Below are positions 3,639 to 64,000 of a DNA stretch of 64,000 nt, in pieces. The notes under the pieces are model-generated. The model saw only the letters and a program-made list of their open reading frames with translations. It did no database searches and had not been told where the DNA came from. The translations under genes and the position numbers were made by a program. Source of the DNA: Candidatus Beckwithbacteria bacterium (GTDB taxonomy: Bacteria > Patescibacteriota > Microgenomatia > UBA1400 > CG1-02-47-37); NCBI GenBank assembly GCA_026397255.1, contig JAPLVF010000011.1:7589-71588 (forward strand). The letters are read 5' to 3'. Numbering within the stretch: position 1 is the first letter of the stretch; every line of letters begins with the position of its first letter.

Positions 3639-3711
3639 TCCGCGGTAGCTCAATTGGCAGAGCGCCTCTCTGTTAAAGAGGATGTTACTGGTCCGAGTCC
3701 AGTCCGCGGAG
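3639..3711 (+). tRNA. tRNA-Asn (anticodon GTT)
   Basis: Hand-folded cloverleaf. Acceptor TCCGCGG/CCGCGGA. D-stem GCTC/GAGC. Anticodon stem CCTCT/AGAGG with loop CTGTTAA (anticodon GTT). T-stem ACTGG/CCAGT with loop TCCGAGT. Discriminator G; CCA not encoded. 73 nt. Confidence 0.85.
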
Positions 3712-5717: not shown

Positions 5718-5768
5718 ACAACAAAAAAGACGTAGCTCTCGGCACGAAGGCCGTCTGAAACTACGTCT
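5718..5768 (-). terminator. rho-independent terminator on the minus strand, downstream of the 5864-6100 gene
   Basis: Compound hairpin AGACGTAG...(inner CGGC/GCCG)...CTACGTCT, followed on the minus strand by CTTTTTTGTTGTC. Confidence 0.5.
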
Positions 5769-5863
5769 AAAACTAAAAAACTTTTACTTAAAACTGTCAG
5801 TATTTTGAACTGATGTAATAACAGCATATATGTAAATAATCCCGATGTCAAGCCCTAATCTTA

Positions 5864-6100
5864 TTAATTATTTAATAATTTAGGGTTATTTTTATTAACT
5901 TTTTTATTATTTTTAACCTCAATTGCTACTGGTGCAGTATCAAGATTTTTCTGTTTTTTTATTTCGTGTCGTTTGGCTTTTCTTTTTGCCTGATATTTAG
6001 TCATTAGCGCTTTGCCTTTCTCAGACTGCATAAATCTTTTGCGGGCAGCAATTCCTTTTTCTGAGTGGGCGTATTTTTTTTGTGTTTCGGTCCATGACAT
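5864..6100 (-). CDS. small highly basic (K/R-rich) hypothetical protein
   Basis: 78-aa ORF; ~30% Lys/Arg; terminator downstream; no recognised domain. Confidence 0.35.
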   Translation of the reverse strand: MSWTETQKKYAHSEKGIAARKRFMQSEKGKALMTKYQAKRKAKRHEIKKQKNLDTAPVAIEVKNNKKVNKNNPKLLNN

Positions 6101-6324
6101 AGATATTCACCTCCTTTATTTATTAACTTTTAAATAATTATCACGACAAATTATCAATATGGCACGAGGGGTTTAGCGGTATTAACTGGGTAAAACGGGG
6201 GGTAGTATCTTTGGGGATTAAGAAGATAAGAACATGATTGTATGAGAGAGGAATGGTTCGGGTTATTTATTGATATCCGTCTTTATGAACTAACATATAT
6301 TGCCTCACAACCGAGGGAAAATAC

Positions 6325-6353
6325 TTGTAAAAAAGCGGTTATTTTTGTATGAT
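6325..6353 (+). promoter_or_regulatory. sigma-70-like promoter for the excisionase-like/helicase operon
   Basis: TTGTAA (-35), 17-nt spacer, TATGAT (-10) about 30 nt upstream of the ATG at 6382. Confidence 0.4.
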
Positions 6354-6381
6354 ATTGGTATCTATTAGTAGGAAAACGAAT

Positions 6382-6567
6382 ATGTCAGACATTCCAGAGT
6401 TAATAACTCTCAAAGAAGCCAGTAAAATATTAAAGGTACATCCAAACACACTTAGGTTGTGGGATAAAAATGGGATATTACCTGCGGTGCGTATTGGTGA
6501 GAAGAAAGTAAGAAGATATAGGAAAATAGATATAGAAAATTTTATTAAGAAAAATGAACGAAAATAA
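6382..6567 (+). CDS. excisionase/AlpA/MerR-type HTH DNA-binding protein
   Basis: 'ITLKEASKILKVHPNTLRLWDKNGILPAVRIGEKKVRRYRKIDIENFI' matches the excisionase-family HTH pattern; its stop overlaps the start of the 1531-aa gene. Confidence 0.6.
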   Translation: MSDIPELITLKEASKILKVHPNTLRLWDKNGILPAVRIGEKKVRRYRKIDIENFIKKNERK

Positions 6568-9500
6568 TATTCAAACTGATAACAGTGAGGACAATGTTAA
6601 GCTCTCTAAGAGCCTTACTTTTATTCGCGAAGTGGCTAAATATTTTATGGATTTCCTGGAAACAGACTTCCATAAAAGAAAAAATCCAAAACGAAGTGTT
6701 CAATTAAGGAGTGGAAATAATCTGCTTATTGGTTTAAACCTCAACAAGTATCCCACTTTTGCTAATCTGGTTTGGAAAGCGATTAACCACTCTTTCGATA
6801 AAAGTGTCTTAAATGGGATACCAAAAGGGGTTTATCGCACCAATATTCCTCAAAATCTCCTTGATTTAATAGAATTATCTCTCAATAAAATAACAAATAA
6901 GCAAATTGCTCAAATACTAGAGCAAGTCACAGAAGAGATTGAAAAATCATCTACTCTATATAAAAAAGAATATGATCAAGCCCTAAGTACCGCCCTTGAA
7001 GCAGCTTCAAAAATTATCCAAACAAATTTAGTCTTACCGTTTATTAGTTATTTAGAAAAGCCGCTAGAGAATTTGAATTTGGGAGATGAAGACAGCACTT
7101 ACTTAATGGAAGAGGAACTTACCTCTGTTCTCACCTCCTTGCTTGAAAATAAAATTTCAGAAGTAATTAAGCTTCTATTGGCAAAAGAAAAGGTTGATAT
7201 CTCCAAACAACTAAAGGATGTTTTTGACATCGATAACGCAAAAGCTAATATTTTGTCATTTTTTGAAAGTTTCCGTGTCGGAGATTTATTTGCGGAAGTA
7301 TATGAGATGGAGCGGAATCGTACCATTTTAGATAAACAGGAATTCTATCTTTATTTTTGCGATATTACTTTTGAAAAGGCAAAGTATCCAATTTTCTATA
7401 TTCCGTTTACTGTAGAAAAACAAAATGATCTATTAAATATAGAGTTTGATTCTCAAGTCTATATAAACAAGAAAGCACTTGAATACATTTCACAGCAATA
7501 TAATCAAGAAAAAGATAAAAAGGGAAATCTAAAAACCATTGCTGAAAGAATTATTTATCTAGCACAACATCAAAATGATTTCAGAGAATTAATAAGCGAA
7601 ATATTGAATGAGATTACTAACTTTTTTGAATTAGACAACAATATTAATATAGACAAAACAGATCCGCAGGTTGCAAAGAGTTTCCTTGTTAGGGCGTCTA
7701 ATTCATGCTACATAACCTTATTCGATAAATCTGATGAGGCGCTGGTAAACGATTACGAAGAAATTTTAAAGCTTCTTTCTTCCGAGGATAGTATTTTAGC
7801 TGGCGCTTTTAACAAGTTAATTGATGACTTTATTCAGAAAGACCCAAAAAGTTTCAATATAGAAATTCAAGAAGATTGGAATGATCAAGAAGTCCAGGAT
7901 AAACTTGTATTCCAAAGCCCAATTCCTTTAAATGAAGAGCAGCTTCAAATACTATCTGCTATAAAGCAAGATGATTGTAAATATATTATTGTGCAAGGTC
8001 CTCCTGGAACAGGTAAAAGCCATACAATAACCGCAGTTGTTTTCAACGCAATACTTAAAAACCAATCCGTTTTAGTTCTATCGGACAAGAAAGAGGCTCT
8101 TGATGTTGTCGAGGATAAGATAACGGAAACGATGAATAAAGTCAGGACTGATGATAATTTTCAAAACCCTGTTTTAAGATTGGGGAAAATAGGTAATGCT
8201 TATGCAAAGATACTAAGTCCAATATCAATTAAAGCTATTACAAATAATTTTCTTGCAGTAAAGAAAAATTATAAGGATTTAGAACAGAATATTGATAAAT
8301 CTCAAAAGTCATTAAAAGAGGACATAGAAGCCGAAATATTAACCTATAAGGATATCGACATAAAAGAGATTCACGAATACTTTGATCTTGAAAGCTACCA
8401 TACAAACAATGGCTTTCCGATTGATTTAGAAGAAGTAGTTAAACAGCAGGAGTCTGCGATAGATCTTGAAGAATTCCGGAAGATATTTTTAACACTGAAA
8501 GCTAAATTAGTAATTGATACTGATGAAAATGAAAAGACGCTAAAAATATTTGAATTATTGGATTTTTCTCTTGATGACTTTAAAGATACATCTGATTTTC
8601 AAAAATATTTACAGTTTTTGAACTCTCTTTCTTCCTCTATCACTAAACTGCGTGAAGTATATGGGGATAACTTAAATTCAATTCTAGAGTTCGAAAACTT
8701 CGATTCCTCTAGATTAAAAGTTCTAAATTCCTCAATACAAAAATATAAAGAGGAGAAAAACTGGCTATTCGGCTATCTATTCAAAAAAGATCAGATAGAG
8801 CGGCTAAATACTGAATTTAGAAAAAATTTTAAATATTCATCGTCAATTGAACCACAACAAAACTTAAAGAAGCTTGACGAAGCGGCAAACATTTATAATT
8901 ACGCAGATGAAATATTTAGCAAACTTGACAACAAATTTATTAGTAAACTGGACTACTTACACTTTTTTCATCAAGTCATAAAAGATGAAAGTGTTTTGTC
9001 ATTTTTAAATGACTTAATAGCTTTAAATGATGATATAAAATATCTCGGCTCCAATATAAATAAGTATCCACTTACGGCTAAAAAACTGAAAGTTAATCTT
9101 TCGTCGTTTAAAACTCTTACTGATAATAAGTTCACAAAAATATCAGATTTGGATTTTGATAAATTAATCAGGTATTTGAGTCTAAACCAAAAGATTGAAA
9201 AGGATTTTCAAGACATTCCTGCTCTTAACTACGACAGTCAAAAGAAGGATATTGAGAGCTTACTTACTGTGCAGATGACTCACGTCATGGACAACAGGCT
9301 CATTGGGTTTTGGACTCAACATCAGGCTACTGCGATTGCTTTAAAGAAAATAATTCAAAGCAAAATGAAGTTTCCTCAAAGTGAATTTCTAAAGCTTAAG
9401 GAGGCTTTCCCTTGCATTTTAGCTGGAATTAGAGATTATGCCGAGTACATCCCTCTCGAGCCAGAAATATTTGATCTAGTAATTATTGATGAGGCTTCAC

Positions 9501-11149
9501 AAGTAAGCGTTGCTCAGGCTTTTCCTGCTCTATTAAGAGCTAAAAAGGTATTAATCCTTGGAGACAAGAAACAATTTAGTAACGTTAAGACTGCCCAAGC
9601 TCGATCAGATGAAAATAGAAAATATTTAAGTCAATTAAAAGATTGTTTTGTTAAATGTATTTCTGATGAAGGTACAAAATTAGTAAAGCTCGAAAAATTT
9701 AACATTAAAACCTCTATTCTTGAGTTCTTTGAATTTATTAGCAACTACAACACGCAACTCTTAAAGTATTTTAGAGGCTACAAAGAGATTATTTCCTATT
9801 CGAATAAATATTTTTATCAGGACAGTCTTCAAGTAATGAAAATTCGAGGGAAGTCGATTGATGAAGTACTGAAATTTTCGTTTATCAAACATGATGGAAA
9901 AACGGAGTTGTTGCAAAATTCTAATGAATTGGAAGTCAAATATATTATTTCGGAATTGAAAAAACTAAAGGAATCAGGATCTAGCCAAAGCGTTGGTATT
10001 ATTACGCCTCATACTAACCAACAGAAATTATTAGTTGAAAAAATTAGCCAATTACCCGAAAAGGATTACTTTTACGATACTTTTAAATTAAAGATAATGA
10101 CTTTTGATACCTGCCAGGGTGAAGAGAGAGACATTATATTTTATTCAATGGTTGCGACTGAAGAAGACGATCATCTTTGGGGCGTGTTCATCAAAGATTT
10201 AAATGATGTTGATGTTGAAGAAGAAGGAAGAATAAAAGCCCAACGATTAAATGTTGGCTTAAGTCGTGCTAAAGAATGTATGCATTTTGTGCTAAGTAAA
10301 CCTATTGAAAACTATACCGGCTCAATAGGCGAGGCTTTGAGACACTATTATTTTGTCCTTAATGAAGCCAAAAAAGAGCATAGTGTTACCGAAGTTGATA
10401 AAAAATCCAAGATGGAGCCTGAAGTTATGAATTGGTTTTACCAGACGGATTTTTGGACAAAACATAAAGATAGTGTTGAGTTTATTCCCCAGTTTGAGCT
10501 TGGAAAATATTTGAAGCAACTTGATAGAACCTACAATCATCCAAAATATAAGGTAGATTTCTTACTTGTATATAAAGATGAAACACATAAAGAGCATAAG
10601 ATCGTAATGGAATATGATGGTTTTAAGGAGCACTTTAAGGATGTAGATGAGATAAATGAATATAACTATCAAGACTATTATTCTGAGTCAGATATTTATA
10701 GAGAAAAAGTATTAGAAAGTTACGGCTACAGATTTTTAAGAGTAAATAAATTTAACATTGGTAGTAACCCCATTGCCACTCTTAACGAGAGAATAACAAG
10801 TTTAGTTAAAAATGGTGCAGGGAAAAACAATGTTATTAGTCATATACACGAGACAGTAGAAAATTTAGAAAATGGTTCGATGAAGGAGTGTCCAAAATGT
10901 AAGGAGGTTAGAGAATACAAAGATTTTAGGGACCCCGATTTGACAACCGGATATGGACGATTTTGCATGCATTGTAAGGGTTATACGCTAGTTGATAAGC
11001 CCGTCGAAGAAGTTAATGACGTTGTAACTTCTGGTGATAAGAATTGTCCCAAGTGCGGTTCAAGTATGATTTTAAGAAATGGGAGATATGGCCGTTTTTA
11101 TGGATGTTCCCGTTTCCCTTATTGTAGAGGAACTAGACAATATATCTAA
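6554..11149 (+). CDS. 1531-aa multidomain protein: DUF4011-like N-terminus + SF1 (Upf1/AAA_11-AAA_12-type) helicase + DUF559/Vsr-like endonuclease + two topoisomerase-type C4 zinc ribbons (Hhe-like)
   Basis: Walker A 'VQGPPGTGKSHTITAVV'; motif II 'DLVIIDEASQV'; 'MTFDTCQGEERDIIFYSMV'; 'LNVGLSRAKECMHFV'. DUF559-like 'KVDFLLVYKDETHKEHKIVMEYDGFKEHF...YGYRFLRVNKF'. zf-C4_Topoisom-like 'CPKCGSSMILRNGRYGRFYGCSRFPYCRGT'. N-terminal 'YPIFYIPFTVEKQNDLLNIEFDSQVYINKKALEYI' resembles the DUF4011 core. Confidence 0.75.
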   Translation: MNENNIQTDNSEDNVKLSKSLTFIREVAKYFMDFLETDFHKRKNPKRSVQLRSGNNLLIGLNLNKYPTFANLVWKAINHSFDKSVLNGIPKGVYRTNIPQNLLDLIELSLNKITNKQIAQILEQVTEEIEKSSTLYKKEYDQALSTALEAASKIIQTNLVLPFISYLEKPLENLNLGDEDSTYLMEEELTSVLTSLLENKISEVIKLLLAKEKVDISKQLKDVFDIDNAKANILSFFESFRVGDLFAEVYEMERNRTILDKQEFYLYFCDITFEKAKYPIFYIPFTVEKQNDLLNIEFDSQVYINKKALEYISQQYNQEKDKKGNLKTIAERIIYLAQHQNDFRELISEILNEITNFFELDNNINIDKTDPQVAKSFLVRASNSCYITLFDKSDEALVNDYEEILKLLSSEDSILAGAFNKLIDDFIQKDPKSFNIEIQEDWNDQEVQDKLVFQSPIPLNEEQLQILSAIKQDDCKYIIVQGPPGTGKSHTITAVVFNAILKNQSVLVLSDKKEALDVVEDKITETMNKVRTDDNFQNPVLRLGKIGNAYAKILSPISIKAITNNFLAVKKNYKDLEQNIDKSQKSLKEDIEAEILTYKDIDIKEIHEYFDLESYHTNNGFPIDLEEVVKQQESAIDLEEFRKIFLTLKAKLVIDTDENEKTLKIFELLDFSLDDFKDTSDFQKYLQFLNSLSSSITKLREVYGDNLNSILEFENFDSSRLKVLNSSIQKYKEEKNWLFGYLFKKDQIERLNTEFRKNFKYSSSIEPQQNLKKLDEAANIYNYADEIFSKLDNKFISKLDYLHFFHQVIKDESVLSFLNDLIALNDDIKYLGSNINKYPLTAKKLKVNLSSFKTLTDNKFTKISDLDFDKLIRYLSLNQKIEKDFQDIPALNYDSQKKDIESLLTVQMTHVMDNRLIGFWTQHQATAIALKKIIQSKMKFPQSEFLKLKEAFPCILAGIRDYAEYIPLEPEIFDLVIIDEASQVSVAQAFPALLRAKKVLILGDKKQFSNVKTAQARSDENRKYLSQLKDCFVKCISDEGTKLVKLEKFNIKTSILEFFEFISNYNTQLLKYFRGYKEIISYSNKYFYQDSLQVMKIRGKSIDEVLKFSFIKHDGKTELLQNSNELEVKYIISELKKLKESGSSQSVGIITPHTNQQKLLVEKISQLPEKDYFYDTFKLKIMTFDTCQGEERDIIFYSMVATEEDDHLWGVFIKDLNDVDVEEEGRIKAQRLNVGLSRAKECMHFVLSKPIENYTGSIGEALRHYYFVLNEAKKEHSVTEVDKKSKMEPEVMNWFYQTDFWTKHKDSVEFIPQFELGKYLKQLDRTYNHPKYKVDFLLVYKDETHKEHKIVMEYDGFKEHFKDVDEINEYNYQDYYSESDIYREKVLESYGYRFLRVNKFNIGSNPIATLNERITSLVKNGAGKNNVISHIHETVENLENGSMKECPKCKEVREYKDFRDPDLTTGYGRFCMHCKGYTLVDKPVEEVNDVVTSGDKNCPKCGSSMILRNGRYGRFYGCSRFPYCRGTRQYI

Positions 11150-11157
11150 TTAAAAAT

Positions 11158-12408
11158 ATGAAAAAAATTAAAGTAACAATCCAGGACGAAAACACACTAA
11201 AACTATTAGAAGATGCCCAAAGGGGTGACATAATCGATCTCAAATCGATACACGAAACGGATATAGATAAAACTACAATTGATATCCTAATCAAATCAAT
11301 CAAAACTGATGAGTTTAATTCACAGCTAGAGGAAGCAAAACGCAATATCGAAAAAGAGAAGGGTCTTGAGGCTCAACTCAAAGAAAAAGACATTATTAAT
11401 AGAGCGAAAGAAGCGCTTGCAAAGAAAGATCAGGAGATTGTCAATTTAAACACTAAAGTCGAAAACATTGCCAAACAGGTTGAATCGGATGCAAAAATTG
11501 AAGCCTTAGAAGAGAAAAAGTCTTTGGAAGATGGTTATCAGCAAAAATTGACTGAAAAAGAAGCTGAAATTCAAGAGATTAAACATCAAAAAGAACTAAA
11601 TGAGCAAAAATACCAGGATCAACTCAAAGCGAGCGAAACTGCTTTAGTCTCTCTAAAAGAAATGCGGTCTAGAATGAGTACCAAAATGATTGGTGAATCA
11701 TTAGAGGTTCACTGTGAGAACGAGTTTAATAGGCTTCGCCCGTTTGCTTTTCCTAAGGCTCAATTCGGAAAAGATAATCAACTTTCAACTTCGGGGTCCA
11801 AAGGAGACTATATCTATCGAGAACTTGACGATGACGGTAATGAAATTTTAACCATTATGTTTGAGATGAAAAATGAGGAAGATGAAACATCTACTAAACA
11901 TAAAAATAAAGACTTTTTCAGGGAATTAGATAAAGATCGACGAGAAAAAAAATGTGAATATGCAGTACTTGTCAGCTTATTGGAAAAAGAAAACGAATAT
12001 TATGACGATATTGTTACAGTGCCTGAATATCCATGCATGTTTGCCATAAGGCCTCAACATTTTATTACAATAATTGGGTTTTTACGCCAAGGTAATTTGA
12101 AATCTCAAGAATTGCGACTGACTATTCAAAATCTTAAAAATCAAAACATCGATGTAACCAATTTTGAATCCAATATAAATGCATTTAAGGATGCTTTTGC
12201 TAGAAATTATAACTTAGCTGCTGATCAATTTAGTAAAGCAATTGAAGAAATCGATAAGACTATTGATCATCTCAATAAGGTTAAAGAAAATTTGCTCAAA
12301 TCAGACAATAACCTGAGATTAGCTAACAACAAAGCCACAGAACTTACAGTAAAAAGATTGACAGCTAACAGTCCAAGTGTTGCAAGGGCTTTTGCGGAAA
12401 AAGTCTAA
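11158..12408 (+). CDS. DUF2130-like coiled-coil protein with a C-terminal PD-(D/E)xK-like putative nuclease core
   Basis: Long E/K-rich coiled coil, then 'SKGDYIYRELDDDGNEILTIMFEMKNEED...EYAVLVSLLE' (D...ExK pattern); 9 nt after the helicase stop. Confidence 0.5.
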   Translation: MKKIKVTIQDENTLKLLEDAQRGDIIDLKSIHETDIDKTTIDILIKSIKTDEFNSQLEEAKRNIEKEKGLEAQLKEKDIINRAKEALAKKDQEIVNLNTKVENIAKQVESDAKIEALEEKKSLEDGYQQKLTEKEAEIQEIKHQKELNEQKYQDQLKASETALVSLKEMRSRMSTKMIGESLEVHCENEFNRLRPFAFPKAQFGKDNQLSTSGSKGDYIYRELDDDGNEILTIMFEMKNEEDETSTKHKNKDFFRELDKDRREKKCEYAVLVSLLEKENEYYDDIVTVPEYPCMFAIRPQHFITIIGFLRQGNLKSQELRLTIQNLKNQNIDVTNFESNINAFKDAFARNYNLAADQFSKAIEEIDKTIDHLNKVKENLLKSDNNLRLANNKATELTVKRLTANSPSVARAFAEKV

Positions 12409-55201: not shown

Positions 55202-55783
55202 ATGAAATTTAAAAATGTGACCATTTCCGGCCGGGTGTGTACGGGTACCAGCACTTTAAGCCAGTTATTGACGGAAAAAATCGGCTGGCGGCATTGGAAC
55301 GCCGGCCAATTTTTCAGGGACTATTGCCGGGAAAACAATTTATCTTTAGAAAACGCCTCTGATAGGTCGGATGATTTAGCCAGAAAAGTGGATTTAGAGA
55401 TGAGGCAAAATTTACAAACAAAACAAAAGCAGATTATGGAGGCTTGGTTGTCCGGGTTTGTCGCTCAAGGAGTGGAAGGGGTGCTAAAAGTTTTACTGGT
55501 GTGTGATGACAGTTTGCGAATTGACAGATTGGTTAATCGTGACGGCATGACGGTGGAGAAAGCAAAGGTAAGAATCAAACAAAGAGAGCAGGAAAATGCC
55601 AAAAAATGGACACGGGTTTATCAGAAAGAGTGGCGGCTGTGGTTGCCACAAGATAAGCAAAAGTTAAAGACACCAGAAGGGTTTTTTGATTTTTGGCACC
55701 CGGCTTTGTATGATTTGGTAATTGATACTTATTCCAACAGTAAAGAAGAAACATTAAAAAAAGTAATGGAGGCCTTATGTTGA
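55202..55783 (+). CDS. cytidylate-kinase-like P-loop NTPase family protein
   Basis: Degenerate P-loop 'ISGRVCTGTSTLSQLL'; size and layout of the Cytidylate_kin2/AAA_18 family. Confidence 0.4.
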   Translation: MKFKNVTISGRVCTGTSTLSQLLTEKIGWRHWNAGQFFRDYCRENNLSLENASDRSDDLARKVDLEMRQNLQTKQKQIMEAWLSGFVAQGVEGVLKVLLVCDDSLRIDRLVNRDGMTVEKAKVRIKQREQENAKKWTRVYQKEWRLWLPQDKQKLKTPEGFFDFWHPALYDLVIDTYSNSKEETLKKVMEALC

Positions 55784-56526
55784 AGAAACTTTTAGTGGGT
55801 TTGGTTTTAATATTTGCGTTAGCGGCGCCGACCAGCGCTGCCAGTGATTATTACCTGCCTTATCCGGGAGCCTTGCCAGACCATCCGCTATATTGGTTAA
55901 AAATGGTACGGGATCGGATTCAGTTATTGTTAACCACCAATACTTTAGCAAAAGCGGAAAAACTGCTGTTATATGCAGATAAGCGCTTGGGTGCAGGTTG
56001 GGCATTAGTGGAAGGTAATAAGCAAGCCTTGGGTATGACAACTTTAACCAAGGCAGAAAAATATTTATATCAGGCGGTGGCACTCGGGGAAAACTCCGGC
56101 CTAAAAGAAACCTTAAAAAAGGCAGTACAAAAACATGAAGAGGTGTTGACGATTGTTAAGGATAAAGTTTCAGATGAGTTTAAAAACAGCCTGCAGGAAA
56201 TGATTACCAGAGATAAAAATTATGAGGCGGGATTGGGGATCGCGACAGAAGTGAAGACGAAGATAGATTTCGGGGATAACCAAGTAGTGACAGCAACTGT
56301 GTCGGCCAGTACAGCCTTGGAGGCTTTGGAAAATGCCAGTAGTGGGGTGAAAGTAAAAGACTATGATTGGGGAAAATTGGTGGAAGAAGTGACCACAAAG
56401 AAAAATACACCCCAAAAAGCCTGGATTTATTTTGTCAACGGTGAGGCAGGCAAAGTGGCAGCGGATAAACAGGAGGTGAAAGCCGGCGACATAGTGGAGT
56501 GGCGTTATGAAAAACCTATTTATTAG
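55777..56526 (+). CDS. secreted protein with a C-terminal DUF4430 (transcobalamin-like beta-grasp) domain
   Basis: Signal peptide; C-terminal 'ALEALENASSGVKVKDYDWGKLVEEV...KAWIYFVNGEAGKVAADKQEVKAGDIVEWRYEKP' fits the DUF4430 consensus (WmYkVNG...GDeI.w.Y). Confidence 0.6.
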   Translation: MLKKLLVGLVLIFALAAPTSAASDYYLPYPGALPDHPLYWLKMVRDRIQLLLTTNTLAKAEKLLLYADKRLGAGWALVEGNKQALGMTTLTKAEKYLYQAVALGENSGLKETLKKAVQKHEEVLTIVKDKVSDEFKNSLQEMITRDKNYEAGLGIATEVKTKIDFGDNQVVTATVSASTALEALENASSGVKVKDYDWGKLVEEVTTKKNTPQKAWIYFVNGEAGKVAADKQEVKAGDIVEWRYEKPIY

Positions 56527-57019
56527 TTTAATTTTGATTTCCTTGGCGATAGGGGAAAGGTTGTGGTTTGATTTGGGACCAAATGTGGAATTGATAATGA
56601 CGACTTCGGTATTAGCCTCAATTTATTTAGGCAGACGTTGGGGGGTAGTGGTGGCTTTGTTAAGTTTAATGATTTCGGACTTAGTCATCGGCAACACGAT
56701 GATTATGATTTTTACCTGGAGCGCGTTTAGCCTAATTGCTTTTGGTGGGAGATGGTTAAAAAATAAAGCTTTCCTTTTTGGCGCCGGTTACGGTTTGGCC
56801 GGGGCGCTGTTTTTTTACTTTTATACCAATTTTGGGGTGTGGTTGATCGGTGGGTTATATCCACATACTTTATTTGGATTAATTGATTGCTATGTGATGG
56901 GCTTGCCGTTTTTGAAACTACAGGCAGTCAGCAGTATGGTATTTTTAGGCGGAACATTAGGAATAATAAATTTATTAAACTTAAGATTTTGGGTAAGCCG
57001 GTGCCCACGCTCTGCGTAA
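56507..57019 (+). CDS. polytopic membrane protein, ECF-transporter S-component-like
   Basis: About 5 TM helices in 170 aa; start overlaps the DUF4430 gene stop (translational coupling). Confidence 0.35.
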   Translation: MKNLFISLILISLAIGERLWFDLGPNVELIMTTSVLASIYLGRRWGVVVALLSLMISDLVIGNTMIMIFTWSAFSLIAFGGRWLKNKAFLFGAGYGLAGALFFYFYTNFGVWLIGGLYPHTLFGLIDCYVMGLPFLKLQAVSSMVFLGGTLGIINLLNLRFWVSRCPRSA

Positions 57020-57126: not shown

Positions 57127-58884
57127 ATGGCAGAACACAGTTTTGATTGGCAAGTAGCAGGCATAGCGATTAGTAAGGCATTTGATCAGTCTTTTGGTCA
57201 GGGTGTAAATCAGATTGGTAACGAAATTAAGAATGTATTTGCCAAAACTCAAGAAATGGTCAAGCCGCAGGAGTCTTATTTTAAAACTCCATTGGAGATA
57301 AGAGATAATAAGATATATTGGCAAGATTACGAACAATCAATTAGCCACTCATTGTTACGTAATGCGGCATTATTGCGATTAAATGGGGCGTCAAAAGAAG
57401 AAATTGAGAAAGCAAAAGCGGAGTGGAAAATGTGGAATCGTTTGGAAGAGAAAATATTAGGCCTAGAGAAAGGGCAGGTGGTTCAGTTTTTGGCCTTAAG
57501 AGGAATTGATCCAGAGCTGGGAGTTGCCTTGCAACAAATTAAAAGAGAGGAAAATGAGTTGGTTTTGGAGTCGCAATTAATGCCATTTAGTCAAATTGAT
57601 CAAATAGAAAATTTTAGGGAATTATTGGGAGAGAAAGGGGAAGATGTTAGTTTTGTGTCGGAAAGTGCAGATGTTGATCCAATGGTTGGTTGGGCTGTTC
57701 AAGGCGTGGCAATAGATTTTCAGCAAGATTTACCTGAATTAATTAGCGAAGCGTATCAATCGGTCCAACCAGAATTCTTGTCGACACAGCCAAGGCCGTT
57801 TTGGTCGTTTTCGGAGATAATACCGATTGTGGTAAAGCCGGAAATCCAGTTTGACGAAACAGCCACAACTTTAATCGAGCAGTCAATCGAACAGGAAAAC
57901 GCGATTCCGGTTACCAGCGCAACCAGTTTCTGGTTTAAGTTAGCGGCCGCGTCAGGAGTACCAAACATTATCGAGACACCGATGCCTGAATTTGTGACGA
58001 CTAACACAATTTTAAAGTCCGACACTGAAATGCTTTCAGATAGATTGCCAATAGCAATGATTAGTTGGCAATCGGATTTAGAAAAGGCAAGTGCAGAGAG
58101 GGAGGTGAAACAAGAAGAGGATGTTGTTTATCGACAAGAGCAGATGAGAAGCCCAGCGATTAAGCGGCAAGAATTAAGCAGAAAAACACAGTCAATGGAA
58201 ATAATTAGGCCCGTGGAAATAGAAAAAACGGAAGCTGTTCCGAGGGTGCCGGTAGAACCACTACCGGCCGCCGCAGTTACTATTTTTGAATCACAACATA
58301 TAGTTTCGCCAATTTTGATAGAAATTTCAAAAGTAATTCCAGAGCTGATTCAGTCCAAGCAACAATCAAGAAGAGTGTCCTCGGAGATCACGGACTCATT
58401 CCAGACATTCCGTTCCGGAACGGAATGTCTTGGAATGATAAAAGAAGGAGTGGTAGAAAGAAAGGCGAAACAAGAACAGACAGAGAGAGTAGTAGTTGAG
58501 CGGGGAGGAATTAAGCCTACAGGGATAATCCCTGCCTCGCCGGCAGGCAGGCTTGAAGGGCGAACAGAAAAAAGGCCAAAAATAGTCAATTCAAGGACAG
58601 TCCCTGAAGTGACTTCCGTAGAAAAGGTAGTTTATCAGGTAAAACCAAAGAAACAAGAAGTTCCGGTTTATCAAATTCCGTGGCCGAATTGGATGCCACT
58701 CAAAGACATTCCGGAGTGGGTTTGGCGGCCGGTGGCGGCAGGCCCGGACGAAATAATTGACTGGTCGTGGTTTTTGGTAACAGTGTTTTATGCATTATTG
58801 AACACAAAAGCATTACTAAAAGTAAGAGTAAATGAAAATTTTTCTTTAAATCAGGGGAGTGGTTTGGAGTTCTTGAGGAGATAA
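57127..58884 (+). CDS. large acidic hypothetical protein (585 aa) with a C-terminal hydrophobic segment
   Basis: ORF only; E/Q-rich; 'IDWSWFLVTVFYALL' possible TM near the C-terminus. Confidence 0.4.
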   Translation: MAEHSFDWQVAGIAISKAFDQSFGQGVNQIGNEIKNVFAKTQEMVKPQESYFKTPLEIRDNKIYWQDYEQSISHSLLRNAALLRLNGASKEEIEKAKAEWKMWNRLEEKILGLEKGQVVQFLALRGIDPELGVALQQIKREENELVLESQLMPFSQIDQIENFRELLGEKGEDVSFVSESADVDPMVGWAVQGVAIDFQQDLPELISEAYQSVQPEFLSTQPRPFWSFSEIIPIVVKPEIQFDETATTLIEQSIEQENAIPVTSATSFWFKLAAASGVPNIIETPMPEFVTTNTILKSDTEMLSDRLPIAMISWQSDLEKASAEREVKQEEDVVYRQEQMRSPAIKRQELSRKTQSMEIIRPVEIEKTEAVPRVPVEPLPAAAVTIFESQHIVSPILIEISKVIPELIQSKQQSRRVSSEITDSFQTFRSGTECLGMIKEGVVERKAKQEQTERVVVERGGIKPTGIIPASPAGRLEGRTEKRPKIVNSRTVPEVTSVEKVVYQVKPKKQEVPVYQIPWPNWMPLKDIPEWVWRPVAAGPDEIIDWSWFLVTVFYALLNTKALLKVRVNENFSLNQGSGLEFLRR

Positions 58885-58955
58885 TAGGCTGATATAGTCT
58901 GACGCAGATATTGGTAGTTGACGGTACTATGGCTGGGGGGATACTGTTTATTTTG

Positions 58956-58971
58956 ACACTGTCGGTAGTGT
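58956..58971 (+). promoter_or_regulatory. candidate NrdR box upstream of nrdR
   Basis: 16-bp imperfect palindrome ACACTGTCGGTAGTGT (ACAC...GTGT ends, as in the NrdR-box consensus), 35 nt upstream of the nrdR ATG. Confidence 0.3.
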
Positions 58972-59005
58972 TCTTTTTTTCACAGCCGCCGGAGGCGAGC
59001 CAAAT

Positions 59006-59452
59006 ATGAAATGCCCATTTTGTAATCAGCCTCAGTCTTCCGTCCTGGAATCACGGGATAGCGAGGATAATCAAGTAACCCGCCGGAGACGCGAGTGCGA
59101 AACCTGTCATAAACGGTTTACTACCTACGAAAGAGTAGAGGGTCCGCAGTTGGTGGTGATTAAAAAAGACAGAAGCCGGGAGAATTTTGATCGGGAGAAA
59201 ATCAGACGGGGAATTAGCCGCGCCTGCGAAAAGCGATCAGTGAGCACAGATTTATTAGAAGAGATTATCGACAATGTGGAAAAAGAAATGTTAAAGAAAA
59301 AAGGCAATGAGATTTCCAGCCGACTGATTGGTAATGCCGTGTTAAAACAATTGAAAAAAATTGACAAAGTGGCCTATGTCAGATTTGCCAGTGTGTATCT
59401 GGATTTTGACGATATTGAAGATTTTACATCTTTAGTTAAGGAAATTAAATGA
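59006..59452 (+). CDS. nrdR: transcriptional repressor NrdR
   Basis: Zinc ribbon 'CPFCN...CETCHKRFTTYERVE' plus ATP-cone; 4-bp overlap with the downstream nrdJ. Confidence 0.9.
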   Translation: MKCPFCNQPQSSVLESRDSEDNQVTRRRRECETCHKRFTTYERVEGPQLVVIKKDRSRENFDREKIRRGISRACEKRSVSTDLLEEIIDNVEKEMLKKKGNEISSRLIGNAVLKQLKKIDKVAYVRFASVYLDFDDIEDFTSLVKEIK

Positions 59453-61317
59453 AAAAATTAAAATTATCAGATAACGCTTTAACGGTGTTAACCAAGCGAG
59501 ATTATTTGAAACGGGATAAAGACGGAAGGATTACAGAGACTCCGGAACAAATGTTTAGGCGGGTGGCTAAGGCGATTGCAGGAAAAGATAAAGAATGGGA
59601 GGAAAGATTTTTCCAAGCAATGGCTAATTTGGAGTTTTTACCGAACTCGCCGACATTGATGCACGCGGGGACGAAGTTTAACCAGCTGTCGGCTTGTTTT
59701 GTGCTGCCGCTTCAAGATAGTCTGGAAAGCATTTTTAAAACCATGGAACACACAGCGACGATTGCCCGCACCGGCGGCGGAGTGGGGATTCCTTTGTCAA
59801 ACTTGAGGCCAAGAGGGTCAAAGGTCAGGTCAACTGGCGGGATTACTTCCGGGCCGATTTCCTTTTTACAATTGTTTAACCAAGTAGCCAACGTAATTAA
59901 TGAAGGTTCCAGCCGGCGGGTGGCTCTCATGGCGGTCATGAATGTGCAACATCCGGATATCATGGACTTTGTTTTTGCCAAAGGAACGGAAGATGAGATT
60001 ACCAATTTTAATATTTCGGTCGGGGCAACCGATGCTTTCATGAAGGCGGCAGTTAACAACAAAGATTATGAGTTAAGGATGCCGAAAACCGAAGAGGTAG
60101 TGAAGAAAATTTCGGCCAGACGGATTTTAGACATGATTACTTTCCAAGCCTGGAAAACGGCCGATCCGGGCATGGTTTTCTTAGACAGAATGAATGCGAA
60201 AAGTCCGGTGAACCATTTGGGCGAGATTCAGACAACCAATCCTTGCGGTGAGCAGCCACTACTGCCTTATGAAAGCTGTAATTTGGGCTCGATTAATTTA
60301 TCTAAATGCCTAAAAGAATCGGCCAAAGGCCGACACGAAGTGAATTGGCAGAAATTAGAAAAATTAATCAGGTTAGGGGTGAGATTTTTAGATGACGTGA
60401 TTGATGTTTGTACTTATCCGATTGAAGAAATTGAGCTGATGAGCCGGCGGACGAGGAAAATCGGTTTGGGAGTGATGGGGTTTGCGGACGCCTTGACGCT
60501 TTTAAATATTGCTTATGCTTCCAATGAAGGATTGAAAACGGCCGAGAGATTGTCGAAGTTTATTCACGACACGGCAGTGAGCGAGTCCAAATTCTTAGCC
60601 AAAGAAAGAGGGTCCTTTCCGGCATTTAAGGGTAGTGCCTGGGAAAAACAAGGGTTTAGCGGGATGCGCAATTCGACGGTCAACACGGTGGCGCCGACCG
60701 GAACAATTTCGATTATTGCTGATTGTTCCAGCGGGATCGAGCCGTTGTTTGCTTTGTCATATGTGCGGAAAAATATTTTAGATGTGAATAATACCGAGTT
60801 GGTGGAAACGAATAAGTTGTTTGAGAAAGCAGCCAAGCAAAAGAAATTTTATTCGGCAAAATTAATGCGGCAAATCAGCGAGACCGGCGGAATTGATGGC
60901 TTAAAGGGTGTACCAGGGCAGTTTAAAGATTTATTTAAGGTCAGCCATGAGATTGATTGGTCCTGGCACGTGAAGATGCAGGCGGCCTGGCAGAAATATA
61001 TTGACGCGGCGGTTTCTAAAACAATTAACATGTCTTCGAGTGCGACGCCGGATGATGTGCGGGAAGCCTATATTTTGGCTTATGAGACTGGCTGTAAAGG
61101 GATTACAGTTTACCGTGATGGCAGTAAAAGCCGGCAGGTGTTGAATGTAGGAATAACTAAGAGTGCCACTCAGCAGATTATTGATGATAACCGGAAATGG
61201 GTGGGGAATGGACACCGAGAGGAAGAATTGTGCCCGGAATGCGGCGGTGAGTTAACGTTTAAAGAAGGTTGTGCGACTTGTTTAGCTTGCGGCTATTCAA
61301 GATGCACAGTGTCATGA
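59449..61317 (+). CDS. nrdJ: class II (adenosylcobalamin-dependent) ribonucleotide reductase NrdJ, paralog 1
   Basis: 'LSACFVLPLQDSLESIF', radical-Cys block 'NPCGEQPLLPYESCNLGSINLS', 'VYRDGS', C-terminal Zn ribbon 'CPECGGELTFKEGCATCLACGYSRC'. Confidence 0.85.
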   Translation: MKKLKLSDNALTVLTKRDYLKRDKDGRITETPEQMFRRVAKAIAGKDKEWEERFFQAMANLEFLPNSPTLMHAGTKFNQLSACFVLPLQDSLESIFKTMEHTATIARTGGGVGIPLSNLRPRGSKVRSTGGITSGPISFLQLFNQVANVINEGSSRRVALMAVMNVQHPDIMDFVFAKGTEDEITNFNISVGATDAFMKAAVNNKDYELRMPKTEEVVKKISARRILDMITFQAWKTADPGMVFLDRMNAKSPVNHLGEIQTTNPCGEQPLLPYESCNLGSINLSKCLKESAKGRHEVNWQKLEKLIRLGVRFLDDVIDVCTYPIEEIELMSRRTRKIGLGVMGFADALTLLNIAYASNEGLKTAERLSKFIHDTAVSESKFLAKERGSFPAFKGSAWEKQGFSGMRNSTVNTVAPTGTISIIADCSSGIEPLFALSYVRKNILDVNNTELVETNKLFEKAAKQKKFYSAKLMRQISETGGIDGLKGVPGQFKDLFKVSHEIDWSWHVKMQAAWQKYIDAAVSKTINMSSSATPDDVREAYILAYETGCKGITVYRDGSKSRQVLNVGITKSATQQIIDDNRKWVGNGHREEELCPECGGELTFKEGCATCLACGYSRCTVS

Positions 61318-63056
61318 AAATAATCGAACCGAAACAATCAGCGATGGCGTTAGAGATTACCAGAAAGCGTTATTTGATGACTGATCGGAAGGGTAGACCG
61401 ATTGAGACGACCGGAGAAATGTTGTGGCGGGTGGCCCAGCATATGGCCAAATTTGAGGAAGATAGAAAAATTGCAGAAGCATTTTATGAGCGAATGGTAG
61501 AGAAAAAATTTGTGTGTTCAGGCAAGGCGATGTTTGAGGCCGGCAACCCGGGCGGTACCGGCCAGCTGGCGGCCTGTTTTGTACTGCCGATTGAAGATTC
61601 AATTGACTCAATTTTTAAAACTTTGGGCGAGGCGGCGGTGATCCATAAAAATAACGGGGGAACAGGATTTAACTTTAGCAAAATACGGCCGCACGGCGAC
61701 AAGGTAAAAAATGTGCCGGGAGCGGCATCCGGGCCAGTGGATTTTATTAAAGCGTTTTCGGCGGCTTTATCCAAGATTTTACAGGGAGCAAAACGGCAGG
61801 GGGCCAATATTGCGATTTTGAATGCCGACCATCCGGATATTGAAGAGTTTATCAAAATGAAGATTGAAGACGGGACAATTAAAAATTTCAACGTCTCGGT
61901 GGGGGCGACGGACGGGTTTATGAAAGCGGTTCTCAATAAAAAGCCGTGGCGGTTAATTAACCCGCGGACGAAAGAAGCAGTAAAAACAATCAGGGCAGAT
62001 AAATTATTTGAGTTAATCTGTCAACTGACATGGCAGACGGCCGATCCGGGAATGGCATTTTTAGACAGGATGGAGAGGGATAATCCGACGCCGACTTTAG
62101 GGAAAATTGAAGCAACCAACCCTTGTGGGGAAATTCCGTTACTAGCCTATGAAAGCTGTAATTTGGGCTCGATTAATTTATCAGAACACCTCAAAAATGG
62201 GGTGGTAGACTGGACAGAACTAAAAAAAACCGTGCATTTAGGAGTGAGGTTTTTGGATAACATGATTGAAGTAAATTACTATCCTTTGGAGGCGGTGGAA
62301 CGAATGGTTAAGGATGGAAACAGAAGAATCGGTTTAGGGGTAATGGGGTTTAGCCATTTGCTGTATAAATTAGGTATTGCTTATAACAGTGAGGCGGCGG
62401 TAAAGTTGGCCGAGAAAGTGGCTAAATTTATCCGACAGGAAGCGGATAAAGCCACGGAACAATTAGGGAAAGAAAGGGGTAATTTTGGCAATTACGATGT
62501 ATCAATTTATGCCGGAAGTGGAAAAAATAGAAGAAATTGCGCCACGACCATGATTGCCCCGACGGGAACAATTTCGATGTTTGCCGATTGTTCCAGCGGA
62601 GTTGAGCCGGTGTTTGCTTTAACCACCACCAGGAAGACTTTTTTTGAAGACAGTCGGAAAAACAGTTCGACTAAAGAAATGACAATGGTCGATCCGGCGT
62701 ACCAGGAGTATAAAAATAAATATGACAAAAATGTGTTTGTGACAGCGCACGAAATCGGTTGGCAATGGCATGTTAAAGTGCAGGCGGCCTGGCAAAAGTA
62801 TTTTGATAATTCTGTTTCCAAGACAATTAATTTCCCCAAAACCGCGACCGTGGACGAAGTAAAAAAAGCATATTTAACGGCTTGGAAGTTGGGCTGTAAA
62901 GGGATTACGGTTTACCGCGACGGCAGTAAGGACGATCAGGTGTTGAATAAGAGCGTTCCGCCAGCTGGCGGATGTCCGGAATGCGGGGAAGAGTTAGAAA
63001 TTAAAGAAGGCTGTCAGACATGTAGAAACTGCGGTTTTAGTAAGTGTAGTTTATGA
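61314..63056 (+). CDS. nrdJ: class II ribonucleotide reductase NrdJ, paralog 2
   Basis: 'LAACFVLPIEDSIDSIF', 'NPCGEIPLLAYESCNLGSINLS', 'CPECGEELEIKEGCQTCRNCGFSKC'; ATGA overlap with paralog 1. Confidence 0.85.
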   Translation: MKIIEPKQSAMALEITRKRYLMTDRKGRPIETTGEMLWRVAQHMAKFEEDRKIAEAFYERMVEKKFVCSGKAMFEAGNPGGTGQLAACFVLPIEDSIDSIFKTLGEAAVIHKNNGGTGFNFSKIRPHGDKVKNVPGAASGPVDFIKAFSAALSKILQGAKRQGANIAILNADHPDIEEFIKMKIEDGTIKNFNVSVGATDGFMKAVLNKKPWRLINPRTKEAVKTIRADKLFELICQLTWQTADPGMAFLDRMERDNPTPTLGKIEATNPCGEIPLLAYESCNLGSINLSEHLKNGVVDWTELKKTVHLGVRFLDNMIEVNYYPLEAVERMVKDGNRRIGLGVMGFSHLLYKLGIAYNSEAAVKLAEKVAKFIRQEADKATEQLGKERGNFGNYDVSIYAGSGKNRRNCATTMIAPTGTISMFADCSSGVEPVFALTTTRKTFFEDSRKNSSTKEMTMVDPAYQEYKNKYDKNVFVTAHEIGWQWHVKVQAAWQKYFDNSVSKTINFPKTATVDEVKKAYLTAWKLGCKGITVYRDGSKDDQVLNKSVPPAGGCPECGEELEIKEGCQTCRNCGFSKCSL

Positions 63057-64000
63057 CAGATTTAACTAAAATTAAAAAACGAGATGGGCGGATAGTGGCA
63101 TTTGAAGAGGCTAAGATTATTTTGGCTATTATGAAGGCTTTGAGTGCGATTGGAGAAGTACAAGGGGAGATAAAACGAAGAAATGAGGCGGAGAGACTAA
63201 CTAAAATTGTGATTACGATTGTGAAAAAAGGGATAAACGGGGAGATTCCGACAGTGGAACAGGTACAGGACGTGGTAGAGCAAGTGTTAATGGCGGCCGG
63301 CCATTACGAAGTGGCCAAGGCCTATATTCTTTACAGGGAAAAACACCAAAAAGTCAGAAAAGTTAAAGAAATTTTGGGAGTGAAAGACGATGTGGGCTTA
63401 AGCACGAATCAACTAAAGGTTTTGGAAAACCGATTTTTACGGCATGATGAGTCCGGGAAGGTAACGGAGACTCCAGGGCAGCTGTTCAGGCGAGTGGCGA
63501 AGTTTGTTGCCTCCGCCGACGCTAAAGCTGTGGCGGACAAGTGGGAAGAGAAATTTTATGAGGTAATTTCAAAGATGGAGTTTGTGCCGGCAGGATGTTA
63601 TTTTAGGGGCGCGGGAACAAAGTCGGCGATGCTGGCGAATTGTTTTGTGCTGCCGATTGAAGACAACATGGAGGCGATTTTTGACAGTGTTAAATATTTA
63701 GCCTTGGTCCAGCAAGCGGGTGGGGGAACGGGTTTTAATTTTTCCAAATTGCGGCCCAAAGGCGATTATGTTAAAAGTTCCGGTGGCTTTGCTACCGGGC
63801 CAGTGTCTTTCATGAAAGTATTTGATGCGGCGACCGGGCAGGTAATGCAGGGCGGTTACCGGATGGGGGCGAATATGGGAATTTTGAATGTTGACCACCC
63901 GGACATTATGGAATTTATTACCTGTAAAACAGAAGAAGGAGAGATTAGTAATTTTAATATTTCGGTTGGGGCGACGGACGGGTTTATGAAAGCGGTCAAG
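63053..64000 (+). CDS. nrdJ: class II ribonucleotide reductase NrdJ, paralog 3 (3' end outside the window)
   Basis: 'MANCFVLPIEDNMEAIF', 'DHPDIMEFI', 'ISNFNISVGATDGFMKAV'; ATGA overlap with paralog 2; open to the window end. Confidence 0.8.
   Translation, partial: MTDLTKIKKRDGRIVAFEEAKIILAIMKALSAIGEVQGEIKRRNEAERLTKIVITIVKKGINGEIPTVEQVQDVVEQVLMAAGHYEVAKAYILYREKHQKVRKVKEILGVKDDVGLSTNQLKVLENRFLRHDESGKVTETPGQLFRRVAKFVASADAKAVADKWEEKFYEVISKMEFVPAGCYFRGAGTKSAMLANCFVLPIEDNMEAIFDSVKYLALVQQAGGGTGFNFSKLRPKGDYVKSSGGFATGPVSFMKVFDAATGQVMQGGYRMGANMGILNVDHPDIMEFITCKTEEGEISNFNISVGATDGFMKAVK

Follow-up and report, generated by a model that had tools for sequence, protein, structure and literature searches.

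A stretch of 64,000 nucleotides from a Candidatus Beckwithbacteria genome (assembly GCA_026397255.1, contig JAPLVF010000011.1, positions 7,589 to 71,588), referred to here as the window, ends in an operon in which nrdR, the gene of a predicted repressor, is followed by three tandem genes for class II, adenosylcobalamin-dependent ribonucleotide reductases (RNRs) of the NrdJ type. From the sequence features described below we hold, with considerable confidence, that the three class II RNRs encoded in this single operon under NrdR control are all active and non-redundant. Conserved residues indicate that the paralogs differ where the base of the substrate is read and its phosphates are held, and that the chemistry is kept. 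The trio is a fixed trait of Microgenomates, the group of Patescibacteria within which Beckwithbacteria fall, and is not peculiar to this genome.

Composition of the operon

The four genes are chained by ATGA start/stop overlaps at 59449, 61314 and 63053. This was the arrangement described in an earlier note on this DNA, which had been made from the letters and a list of open reading frames (ORFs), and both the ORF listing and a direct reading of the junctions agreed with it. Pfam searches assigned Zn_ribbon_NrdR and ATP-cone domains to the nrdR product, and Ribonuc_red_lgN together with Ribonuc_red_lgC (PF00317 and PF02867) to each of the three NrdJ. An additional N-terminal ATP-cone, absent from the earlier note, was found in copy 3, the sole NrdJ of the window to carry this domain. 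With the NCBIfam models, the nrdR product scored 191.9 bits for TIGR00244 (NrdR; cutoff 124.65), and copies 1 and 2 scored 681.5 and 602.5 bits for TIGR02504 (NrdJ_Z; cutoff 399.95). The three copies belong to families designated J1a, J2 and J3, and a fourth family, J1b, occupies the first slot in other lineages. The J3 fragment in the window reached 231 bits with TIGR02504 because the window end truncates the gene, and as that gene is incomplete, its full-length features were read from orthologs of 81% and 67% identity. J3 orthologs scored 680.8 (full-length) and 710 bits and J1b proteins 621 and 608.6 bits, all above the cutoff. Full-length J3 orthologs have 729-777 amino acids (aa) with the catalytic block and the Cys-rich tail present; both the NPCGE..C block and the tail are retained in those at L005 10079-12265 (81% identical) and L007 9129-11324, where L numbers denote the loci compared.

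Pairwise identities among the three NrdJ of the window are 43%, 47% and 49%, and the copies are therefore neither an assembly artefact nor the result of recent duplication, in line with the divergence noted before. Copy 2 is identical over its whole length (100%) to MCX6816678.1, an NCBI entry from a Candidatus Beckwithbacteria metagenome-assembled genome (MAG). The start of copy 2 is ambiguous, as MCX6816678.1 begins four codons 5' (ATG at 61302, 584 aa) and an in-frame TTG is also present at 61269; the alignment of orthologs favours ATG 61314 or a start close by. No clear Shine-Dalgarno sequence was seen ahead of copies 2 and 3, no convincing internal terminator between the genes of the operon, and no NrdB-like gene in the operon or in the flanks examined.

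Conservation of the trio among relatives

Metagenome contigs were scanned with a J2 profile and every NrdJ in the 79 loci obtained was classified by tblastn, a census which, being seeded with J2, could detect no relative devoid of J2. A slot-1 NrdJ was present in 43/43 loci that extended 2.5 kb or more upstream of J2, J3 was present in 51/51 that extended 2.5 kb or more downstream, and all three NrdJ were found in the same order wherever both flanks were long enough (32/32). The order nrdR-slot 1-J2-J3 was seen in ENA and JGI contigs (L003 and L004), in GTDB species representatives (L005, L006 and L007), in Collierbacteria (L012-L014) and in other Patescibacteria (L015-L017 and L097), and the J3 of one JGI contig is close to a Roizmanbacteria entry. 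A scan of genome contigs with a single protein returned three close loci and four Woesearchaeota/archaeal loci with a single NrdJ. A triplicated set is thus unusual, as had been supposed, for bacteria generally, but not within Microgenomates, where it is the rule. For annotators, this means that 'three NrdJ' in such MAGs are real, and reflect neither contamination nor mis-assembly. The junctions vary among the relatives, from overlaps to gaps of 4-230 nt, and NUDIX, MazG-like or NYN genes sometimes lie between the nrdJ genes.

Two kinds of interruption were observed in the relatives. In L003 (ENA contig, 5742-12000) many frameshifts and stops run through nrdR and all three nrdJ, and a single frameshift interrupts J3 in L004 (10001-12257). 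Such interruptions have the look of errors in sequencing or assembly and not of pseudogenes, because the frames resume with conserved sequence. Separately, insertions of about 1.1-1.5 kb split J1b (at the thiyl-radical Cys, around aa 279), J2 (near NPCGE, around aa 278-286) or J3 (around aa 213-225) in many relatives (L006 12397-13833; L021-L023, L043-L045, L061, L064, L065, L080, L084, L087, L094 and L095). Pfam intein/LAGLIDADG domains (PF14890 and PF14528) were found in database J2 orthologs carrying an insertion and in a few of the matches to J3 searches. No such insertion is present in J1 and J2 of the window, nor in the visible part of J3.

Catalytic and effector residues and the redox tail

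The families were aligned to the NrdJ of Thermotoga maritima (Tm numbering), and the roles of the residues were taken from the table of Zimanyi et al. 2016 (PMC4728125). C134, N320, C322, E324 and C333 are retained in every family, across tens to more than 100 sequences each, as are the R207 latch and the effector anchors D141 and R171. Alignment to a characterised NrdJ, which had been proposed as a check, thus found the catalytic and effector-site anchor residues in every copy and family, J3 being read through its full-length orthologs. In a J3 ortholog the catalytic set corresponds to C185, N367, C369, E371 and C380, the first Cys alone being visible in the J3 of the window. The position of K158 is occupied by R in J1a, K in J2 and Q in J3, and Q is also found there in some canonical sequences.

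The bottom-face Cys reported for each paralog was located in the motifs SACFVLP, AACFVLP and ANCFVLP, and copies 1 and 2 showed the expected NPCGE...C block and Cys-rich tail, copy 3 running off the window before these. In the census, the catalytic motif was recovered in most or all unique sequences of every family, and the tail pattern C-x2-C-x9-C-x2-C-x2-C-x4-C in 13/13, 27/27, 52/53 and 47/48 unique sequences of the four families. The six-Cys tail of the J1, J2 and J3 orthologs fits the pattern of the NrdJ Cys-rich zinc-finger/redox domain, which stands at the extreme C-terminus (Loderer et al. 2017), and is predicted to have a zinc or redox role; in the NrdJd of Stackebrandtia nassauensis a tail motif combining a zinc finger and a redox pair delivers electrons (PMC5704485). 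The all-alpha and ten-stranded barrel domains of RNRs, TIGR02504 scores above the cutoff and above those of class I models, and the active-site residues (the Cys of the thiyl radical, the redox pair of Cys, Asn and Glu) all place these proteins in class II NrdJ. The combination of N-S/T-P-T with K-Q-G-G-x-R-R-G-A, which is typical of NrdJ and not strictly defining, is seen in none of the copies. On these features all copies look CATALYTICALLY competent.

Differences at substrate contacts

The alignment contained 264 columns conserved in canonical relatives. In 76 of these columns, one or more of the paralog families conserve another residue instead. Two clusters among the 76 changed columns fall on known substrate contacts, namely loop 2 and the Ser91 phosphate motif (Table 1).

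Table 1. Loop 2 and Ser91 motif in canonical NrdJ and in the paralog families
Family	Loop 2 (Tm 202-210)	Ser91 motif
Canonical	KQGG[RK]RRGA	N[ST]PT[LI][MF]N
J1a	NEGSSRRVA	NSPTLMH
J1b	GQGGGRRSA	NGRT[ML]AN
J2	LQGAKRQGA	[SA]GKAM[FY]E
J3 in J1a genomes	MQGG[YF]RMGA	AG[CG]Y[FL]R[GS]
J3 in J1b genomes	MQGGKKRGA	AGRTLNN

These forms are stable within their families. Loop 2 of J1a is at least 90% conserved (69 sequences), that of J2 is conserved across 113 sequences, and the motif replacing Ser91 in J2 was found in 113/113 sequences. The canonical Ser91 motif occurs in 89/89 other ATP-cone NrdJ and in all outgroup clusters, and the canonical KQGG loop 2 is the dominant form among ATP-cone NrdJ matches to J3. 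The roles of the residues concerned have been described. Ser91 and Arg207 bind substrate phosphates, Asp141, Arg171 and Lys158 bind the effector, Gln294 of the Escherichia coli enzyme (Ec; Q203 in Tm) selects pyrimidines, the Ec Arg equivalent to Tm R207 is essential, and Ec Ser293 and Gly299 (Tm 202 and 208) set the preference for ADP or GDP (PMC4728125). The T. maritima NrdJ itself projects K202 (dTTP/GDP) and Q203 (dATP/CDP or UDP) toward the substrate (PMC3267527). Taken with these published roles, the changed columns indicate that the paralogs differ at substrate-reading positions. The J3 motifs moreover co-vary with the type of NrdJ in slot 1 (J1a or J1b), which fits functional interdependence but could also be a matter of shared phylogeny.

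Four families for three slots

Clustering and a neighbour-joining tree (100 bootstrap replicates; distance-based, with a limited sample) resolved four families for the three slots, each a clade with 100% bootstrap, and the complement of every genome is J1a or J1b plus J2 plus J3. J1a, the first copy of the window, groups with the 'canonical' NrdJ of DPANN archaea and other bacteria. J1b, the slot-1 copy in Collierbacteria, L004 and other lineages, is 33-38% identical to everything else and groups weakly with J2 (79% bootstrap). From these affinities, it would seem that another type of NrdJ came to refill slot 1 in Beckwithbacteria-like lineages, with the number three kept. The picture is therefore not that of a simple lineage-specific triplication, a possibility raised earlier for phylogeny to settle, but of ancient clades with slot 1 held by one of two unrelated types. 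Identity between orthologs of a given genome pair is similar across the slots (for example 84/80/81% and 74/72/67%), and so no copy appears to be drifting or under relaxed constraint.

J1b (677-718 aa; L004 4468-6621, L012 2079-4109 and L015 7788-9884) is very divergent and yet lies above the NrdJ equivalog cutoff. In this family NPCGEQ.LGPYENCC replaces ...ESCNLGS, QPTGAIA replaces APTGTIS in the phosphate-binding helix and EGYGCEP replaces SSGIEP. The first nrdJ gene of L004 has its catalytic motif in the form NPCGE...NCC.

Promoter and NrdR boxes

A candidate NrdR box had been proposed ahead of nrdR, and this box (ACACTGTCGGTAGTGT at 58956-58971, box B) is supported by its conservation across relatives. 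It agrees with the consensus at 11/12 positions and its position is conserved in relatives. A second, degenerate box (box A, 7/12) lies 32 bp upstream, centre to centre, and aligns with good palindromes in relatives, for example GCACTACCGCTAGTGC in L006. The -35 block TTGGTAGTTGAC showed no variation when five of the regions upstream of nrdR were aligned. Among 44 distinct regions of this kind, 34 had their two best ACACTAnnnnTAGTGT matches at a distance of exactly 32 bp, as compared with a spacing of 31-33 bp in 88 of 2200 shuffled sequences (4%). In the window taken by itself, a loose NrdR-box pattern was not enriched (10 matches against 9.35 expected), and a scan for tandem boxes found the nrdR site alone, with about one per 64 kb expected by chance. 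The statistics of the window being at chance level, the claim for the boxes therefore rests on cross-genome conservation.

The repressor gene and its site have the features of an NrdR system: a zinc ribbon with an ATP-cone, a TIGR00244 match, and tandem 16-bp palindromes about 31-32 bp apart over the promoter, to which binding is predicted. Conservation of the tandem boxes at 32 bp across relatives argues that the operon is very probably auto-repressed by NrdR, and auto-repression is known from other nrdR-nrdJ operons.

Interpretation and alternative explanations

We propose that a single transcript from the NrdR-controlled promoter would give rise to three individually active adenosylcobalamin-dependent RNRs. 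NrdR would sense ATP/dATP and repress the whole operon, itself included, and the overlapping stops and starts would lead to co-translation of the four proteins. Under a division of labour each enzyme would take a different subset of the four ribonucleotides, or follow a different mapping of effector to substrate; the enzymes might possibly act at different phosphorylation levels, and J3 would be the copy under ATP/dATP on/off control. Non-redundancy is proposed because each clade has its own near-invariant residues at contacts to the base and phosphates of the substrate. That partition of substrates is the reason for the trio we advance tentatively, at a little less than even confidence. The composite of the two, co-expressed and non-redundant active enzymes whose specificity or regulation is partitioned or re-mapped, seems to us evenly poised.

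Several points weigh against this interpretation. No copy has lost the effector-site anchors, and hence no obvious 'hard-wired' enzyme stands out among them; the substrate preference of each copy is unreadable from sequence. Position 202 is not conserved in class I RNRs, and a change there may be of less consequence than assumed. The two unrelated types that can occupy slot 1, J1a and J1b, differ in their substitutions, which weakens a simple mapping of residue to role. Gly91 followed by a basic residue 92 is common to J1b, J2 and the J3 of J1b genomes, and may be an inherited lineage trait and not a specialisation. Co-transcription and coupling suit a hetero-oligomer equally well. Finally, the phylogeny is by neighbour-joining from a limited sample and the third gene is incomplete in the window.

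Three functional ideas had been put forward for the array in the earlier note: subfunctionalisation, a hetero-oligomeric enzyme and non-canonical regulators. Subfunctionalisation fits best, because the substrate-contacting residues are clade-specific and near-invariant. The hetero-oligomer is possible, if unlikely. In this case the paralogs would assemble into hetero-dimers or larger oligomers acting as one composite RNR, in which one paralog, through its effector site and loop 2, would govern another's active site and the tails would re-reduce their partners. Strict order and co-occurrence, the ATGA overlaps, which favour stoichiometric co-production, and the co-variation of J3 motifs with slot-1 type would all be expected. 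The specificity site of class II enzymes also lies at the dimer interface, and electrons pass from tail to active site between subunits of S. nassauensis NrdJd (PMC5704485). However, in spite of deep divergence every copy retains all of its catalytic residues, the effector anchors and a redox tail of its own, whereas one partner is degenerate in known heteromeric RNRs, yeast Rnr2/Rnr4 for example. Tight coupling is also not universal, with gaps or NUDIX, MazG or NYN genes between the nrdJ genes in many relatives, and slot 1 has been swappable between unrelated NrdJ types, which is harder to reconcile with an obligate interface.

Somewhat less probable again are equivalent isozymes that differ in the conditions they serve, for example in their preference among scavenged cobamide forms, in reductant or in sensitivity to dATP. 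Consistent with such a role, the ATP-cone is confined to J3 here and occurs variably in J2 elsewhere, and dependence on B12 salvage is apparent from the adenosyltransferase by the operon in relatives and the DUF4430 and DUF6580 genes upstream in the window (see below). Co-transcribed genes, however, cannot be deployed separately at the transcriptional level, and the clade-specific changes gather at loop 2 and the Ser91 motif, not at obviously cofactor-related positions. Three redundant enzymes of 600-730 aa would also be unlikely to persist in streamlined genomes lineage-wide.

That one or two copies are catalytically dead regulators or scaffolds is very improbable. Loss of the canonical Ser91 motif in J2 and J3 and the change of Q203 to Glu in J1a could be taken to suggest it. 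No copy, full-length J3 orthologs included, was found to lack the catalytic residues, which would have been the mark of a pseudo-enzyme; each family, over tens to more than 100 sequences, has retained the catalytic set, R207 and its redox tail, and all families exceed the curated equivalog cutoff for NrdJ. The idea is therefore disfavoured on the sequence features. Inteins at catalytic sites, which are typical of essential active genes, occur in relatives in all three families and also speak against dead enzymes. An assembly artefact or a very recent duplication, for which there is nothing beyond the tandem layout, can be dismissed given the 43-49% identity, the separate clades with 100% bootstrap and the recurrence of the array in dozens of independent assemblies and contigs.

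Features of the locus and neighbouring genes

The features of the operon are collected in Table 2.

Table 2. Coordinates of the promoter, NrdR boxes, genes and motifs in the window
Feature	Position	Strand	Details
Sigma-70-like promoter	58918..58945	+	-35 TTGACG 58918-58923, 16-nt spacer, -10 GATACT 58940-58945; from a consensus scan, putative function
NrdR box A, GTACTATGGCTGGGGG	58924..58939	.	Degenerate in this genome; between the -35 and -10 hexamers
NrdR box B, ACACTGTCGGTAGTGT	58956..58971	.	11 nt 3' of the -10 hexamer; exact ACACN8GTGT match
nrdR	59006..59452	+	Predicted repressor, first gene of the operon; zinc ribbon and ATP-cone; PF22811 and PF03477; TIGR00244
nrdJ-1	59449..61317	+	J1a type, 622 aa, without ATP-cone; Pfam, TIGR02504; clade with 100% neighbour-joining bootstrap
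nrdJ-1 key residues			C83, N264, C266, E268, C277
nrdJ-1 Ser91 motif	59644-59664		NSPTLMH
nrdJ-1 loop 2	59893-59925		VINEGSSRRVA
nrdJ-1 catalytic block	60238-60285
nrdJ-1 Cys-rich redox tail	61231-61305
nrdJ-2	61314..63056	+	J2 type, 580 aa from ATG at 61314, without ATP-cone here; Pfam, TIGR02504
nrdJ-2 key residues			C88, N269, C271, E273, C282
nrdJ-2, in place of Ser91 motif	61518-61538		SGKAMFE
nrdJ-2 loop 2	61773-61805		KILQGAKRQGA
nrdJ-2 catalytic block	62118-62165
nrdJ-2 Cys-rich tail	62973-63047
nrdJ-3	63053..64000	+	J3 type; truncated, with 316 of about 730 aa inside the window
nrdJ-3 ATP-cone	63068-63349		Residues 6-99
nrdJ-3, in place of Ser91 motif	63590-63610		AGCYFRG
nrdJ-3 bottom Cys motif	63635-63655		ANCFVLP
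nrdJ-3 loop 2	63842-63871		VMQGGYRMGA

In about 50 loci the array is followed by Maf and a CobA-type cob(I)alamin adenosyltransferase (the latter in 49), and in L097 a non-homologous PduO-type adenosyltransferase stands in place of the CobA type. The adjoining adenosyltransferase lends indirect support to the assignment as adenosylcobalamin enzymes, and the organism seems dependent on B12 salvage. Two overlapping genes lie immediately upstream of the operon (55777-57019). One codes for a protein with DUF5667 and DUF4430, the latter being the domain at the C-terminus of transcobalamin-type B12 binders (PMC4350170), and the other for a small DUF6580 membrane protein with multiple helices. This pair adjoins the three-NrdJ operon in 10 loci, occupies a different position in L097 (20210-21144), beside the PduO-type adenosyltransferase, and is a candidate for cobalamin capture and uptake. 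Searches of the PDB by sequence with the DUF4430 and DUF6580 proteins gave nothing meaningful, and an AlphaFold2 model of the DUF6580 protein, from the single sequence without an alignment, was of too low a quality for use, with a pLDDT (predicted local distance difference test) of 54.5. With Rfam, no cobalamin riboswitch or other RNA was found near the locus, a single tRNA (3639-3711) being the one hit in the window.

The NUDIX, MazG-like or NYN genes between nrdJ paralogs were located at L004 6697-7176 and 9544-9963, L017 14340-15230 and L012 5951-6586. Together, the inserted NUDIX and MazG-like genes and the Maf gene of about 50 loci thus form a (d)NTP ((deoxy)nucleoside triphosphate) pyrophosphatase set tightly linked to the three reductases, a hint that products might be handled at the triphosphate level.

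An ORF of 585 aa (57127-58884), between the DUF6580 gene and nrdR, is without a Pfam domain and was found in close relatives only (11 loci). On the minus strand, a gene for a large serine recombinase (Resolvase and Recombinase domains; 3685-5181) abuts the tRNA gene, and this junction (3639-5181) may be the edge of an integrated element. The remaining window has ordinary chromosome content, with DnaG, two class A penicillin-binding proteins, SufBD, GAPDH, RpiB and NAD synthase.

Relation to known systems and significance

Each component, from enzyme family and repressor to boxes and Cys-rich tail, has been described before. Among solved structures the best match is the dimeric class II RNR of T. 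maritima (PDB 1XJE; E about 1e-110), which has the same C134, N320, C322, E324, C333, D141, R171 and R207. T. maritima, however, has a single enzyme with the canonical NSPTLFN and KQGSRRRGA, whereas the three paralogs here have differing residues at 91-96, 202, 203, 208 and 209; the Cys-rich tail, absent from the crystallised Tm chain, is present in all three, one of which also has an ATP-cone.

In Streptomyces nrdRJ, nrdR is the first gene of a class II operon and tandem 16-bp boxes, about three helical turns apart, lie over the promoter. The present operon shares the leading nrdR and the tandem boxes overlapping the promoter; it differs in having three nrdJ in place of one, and in the degeneration of its box A.

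Yeast, as a eukaryote, has class I paralogs (Rnr1/Rnr3 and Rnr2/Rnr4), some of which form heteromers, with Rnr4 degenerate and Rnr3 separately induced. Paralogous subunits are likewise kept in one genome here, but they are of class II, all copies look active and they would be co-transcribed.

Two NrdJd are found in some Frankia and Alphaproteobacteria, one of the two with a Cys-rich domain (PMC5704485), and provide a precedent for more than one NrdJ per genome; the present case differs in that there are three, all with a Cys-rich tail, in one operon fixed across the lineage. The six-Cys tail itself resembles that of S. nassauensis NrdJd with near-identical spacing, C-x2-C-x9-C-x2-C-x2-C-x4/5-C (x5 there and x4 here). 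No paper on multiple NrdJ in Patescibacteria, the Candidate Phyla Radiation (CPR) or Microgenomates was found in the searchable literature (subscription literature and RNRdb lying outside the search), and a large preprint on RNR phylogeny mentions neither paralogs nor CPR.

To our knowledge, characterised RNRs all balance the four dNTPs via one catalytic subunit, with specificity switched by effectors through loop 2. That the same trio is kept in every related genome examined suggests that the synthesis of DNA building blocks, a one-enzyme job elsewhere, is shared out among three enzymes. The bolder proposition, that Microgenomates replaced the one-RNR design by three re-tuned class II enzymes serving subsets of substrates, possibly nucleoside triphosphates versus diphosphates, is on the doubtful side. 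If true, it would represent a natural division of labour in dNTP synthesis, undescribed for any RNR, and would yield sequence-to-specificity rules for loop 2; copies that partition substrates or form mixed oligomers would amount to a new way of controlling dNTP pools. By retaining all three class II enzymes intact, this streamlined, host-dependent lineage provides a natural experiment in the encoding of RNR specificity. The finding also makes it clearer how candidate-phyla bacteria depend on nucleotides and B12.

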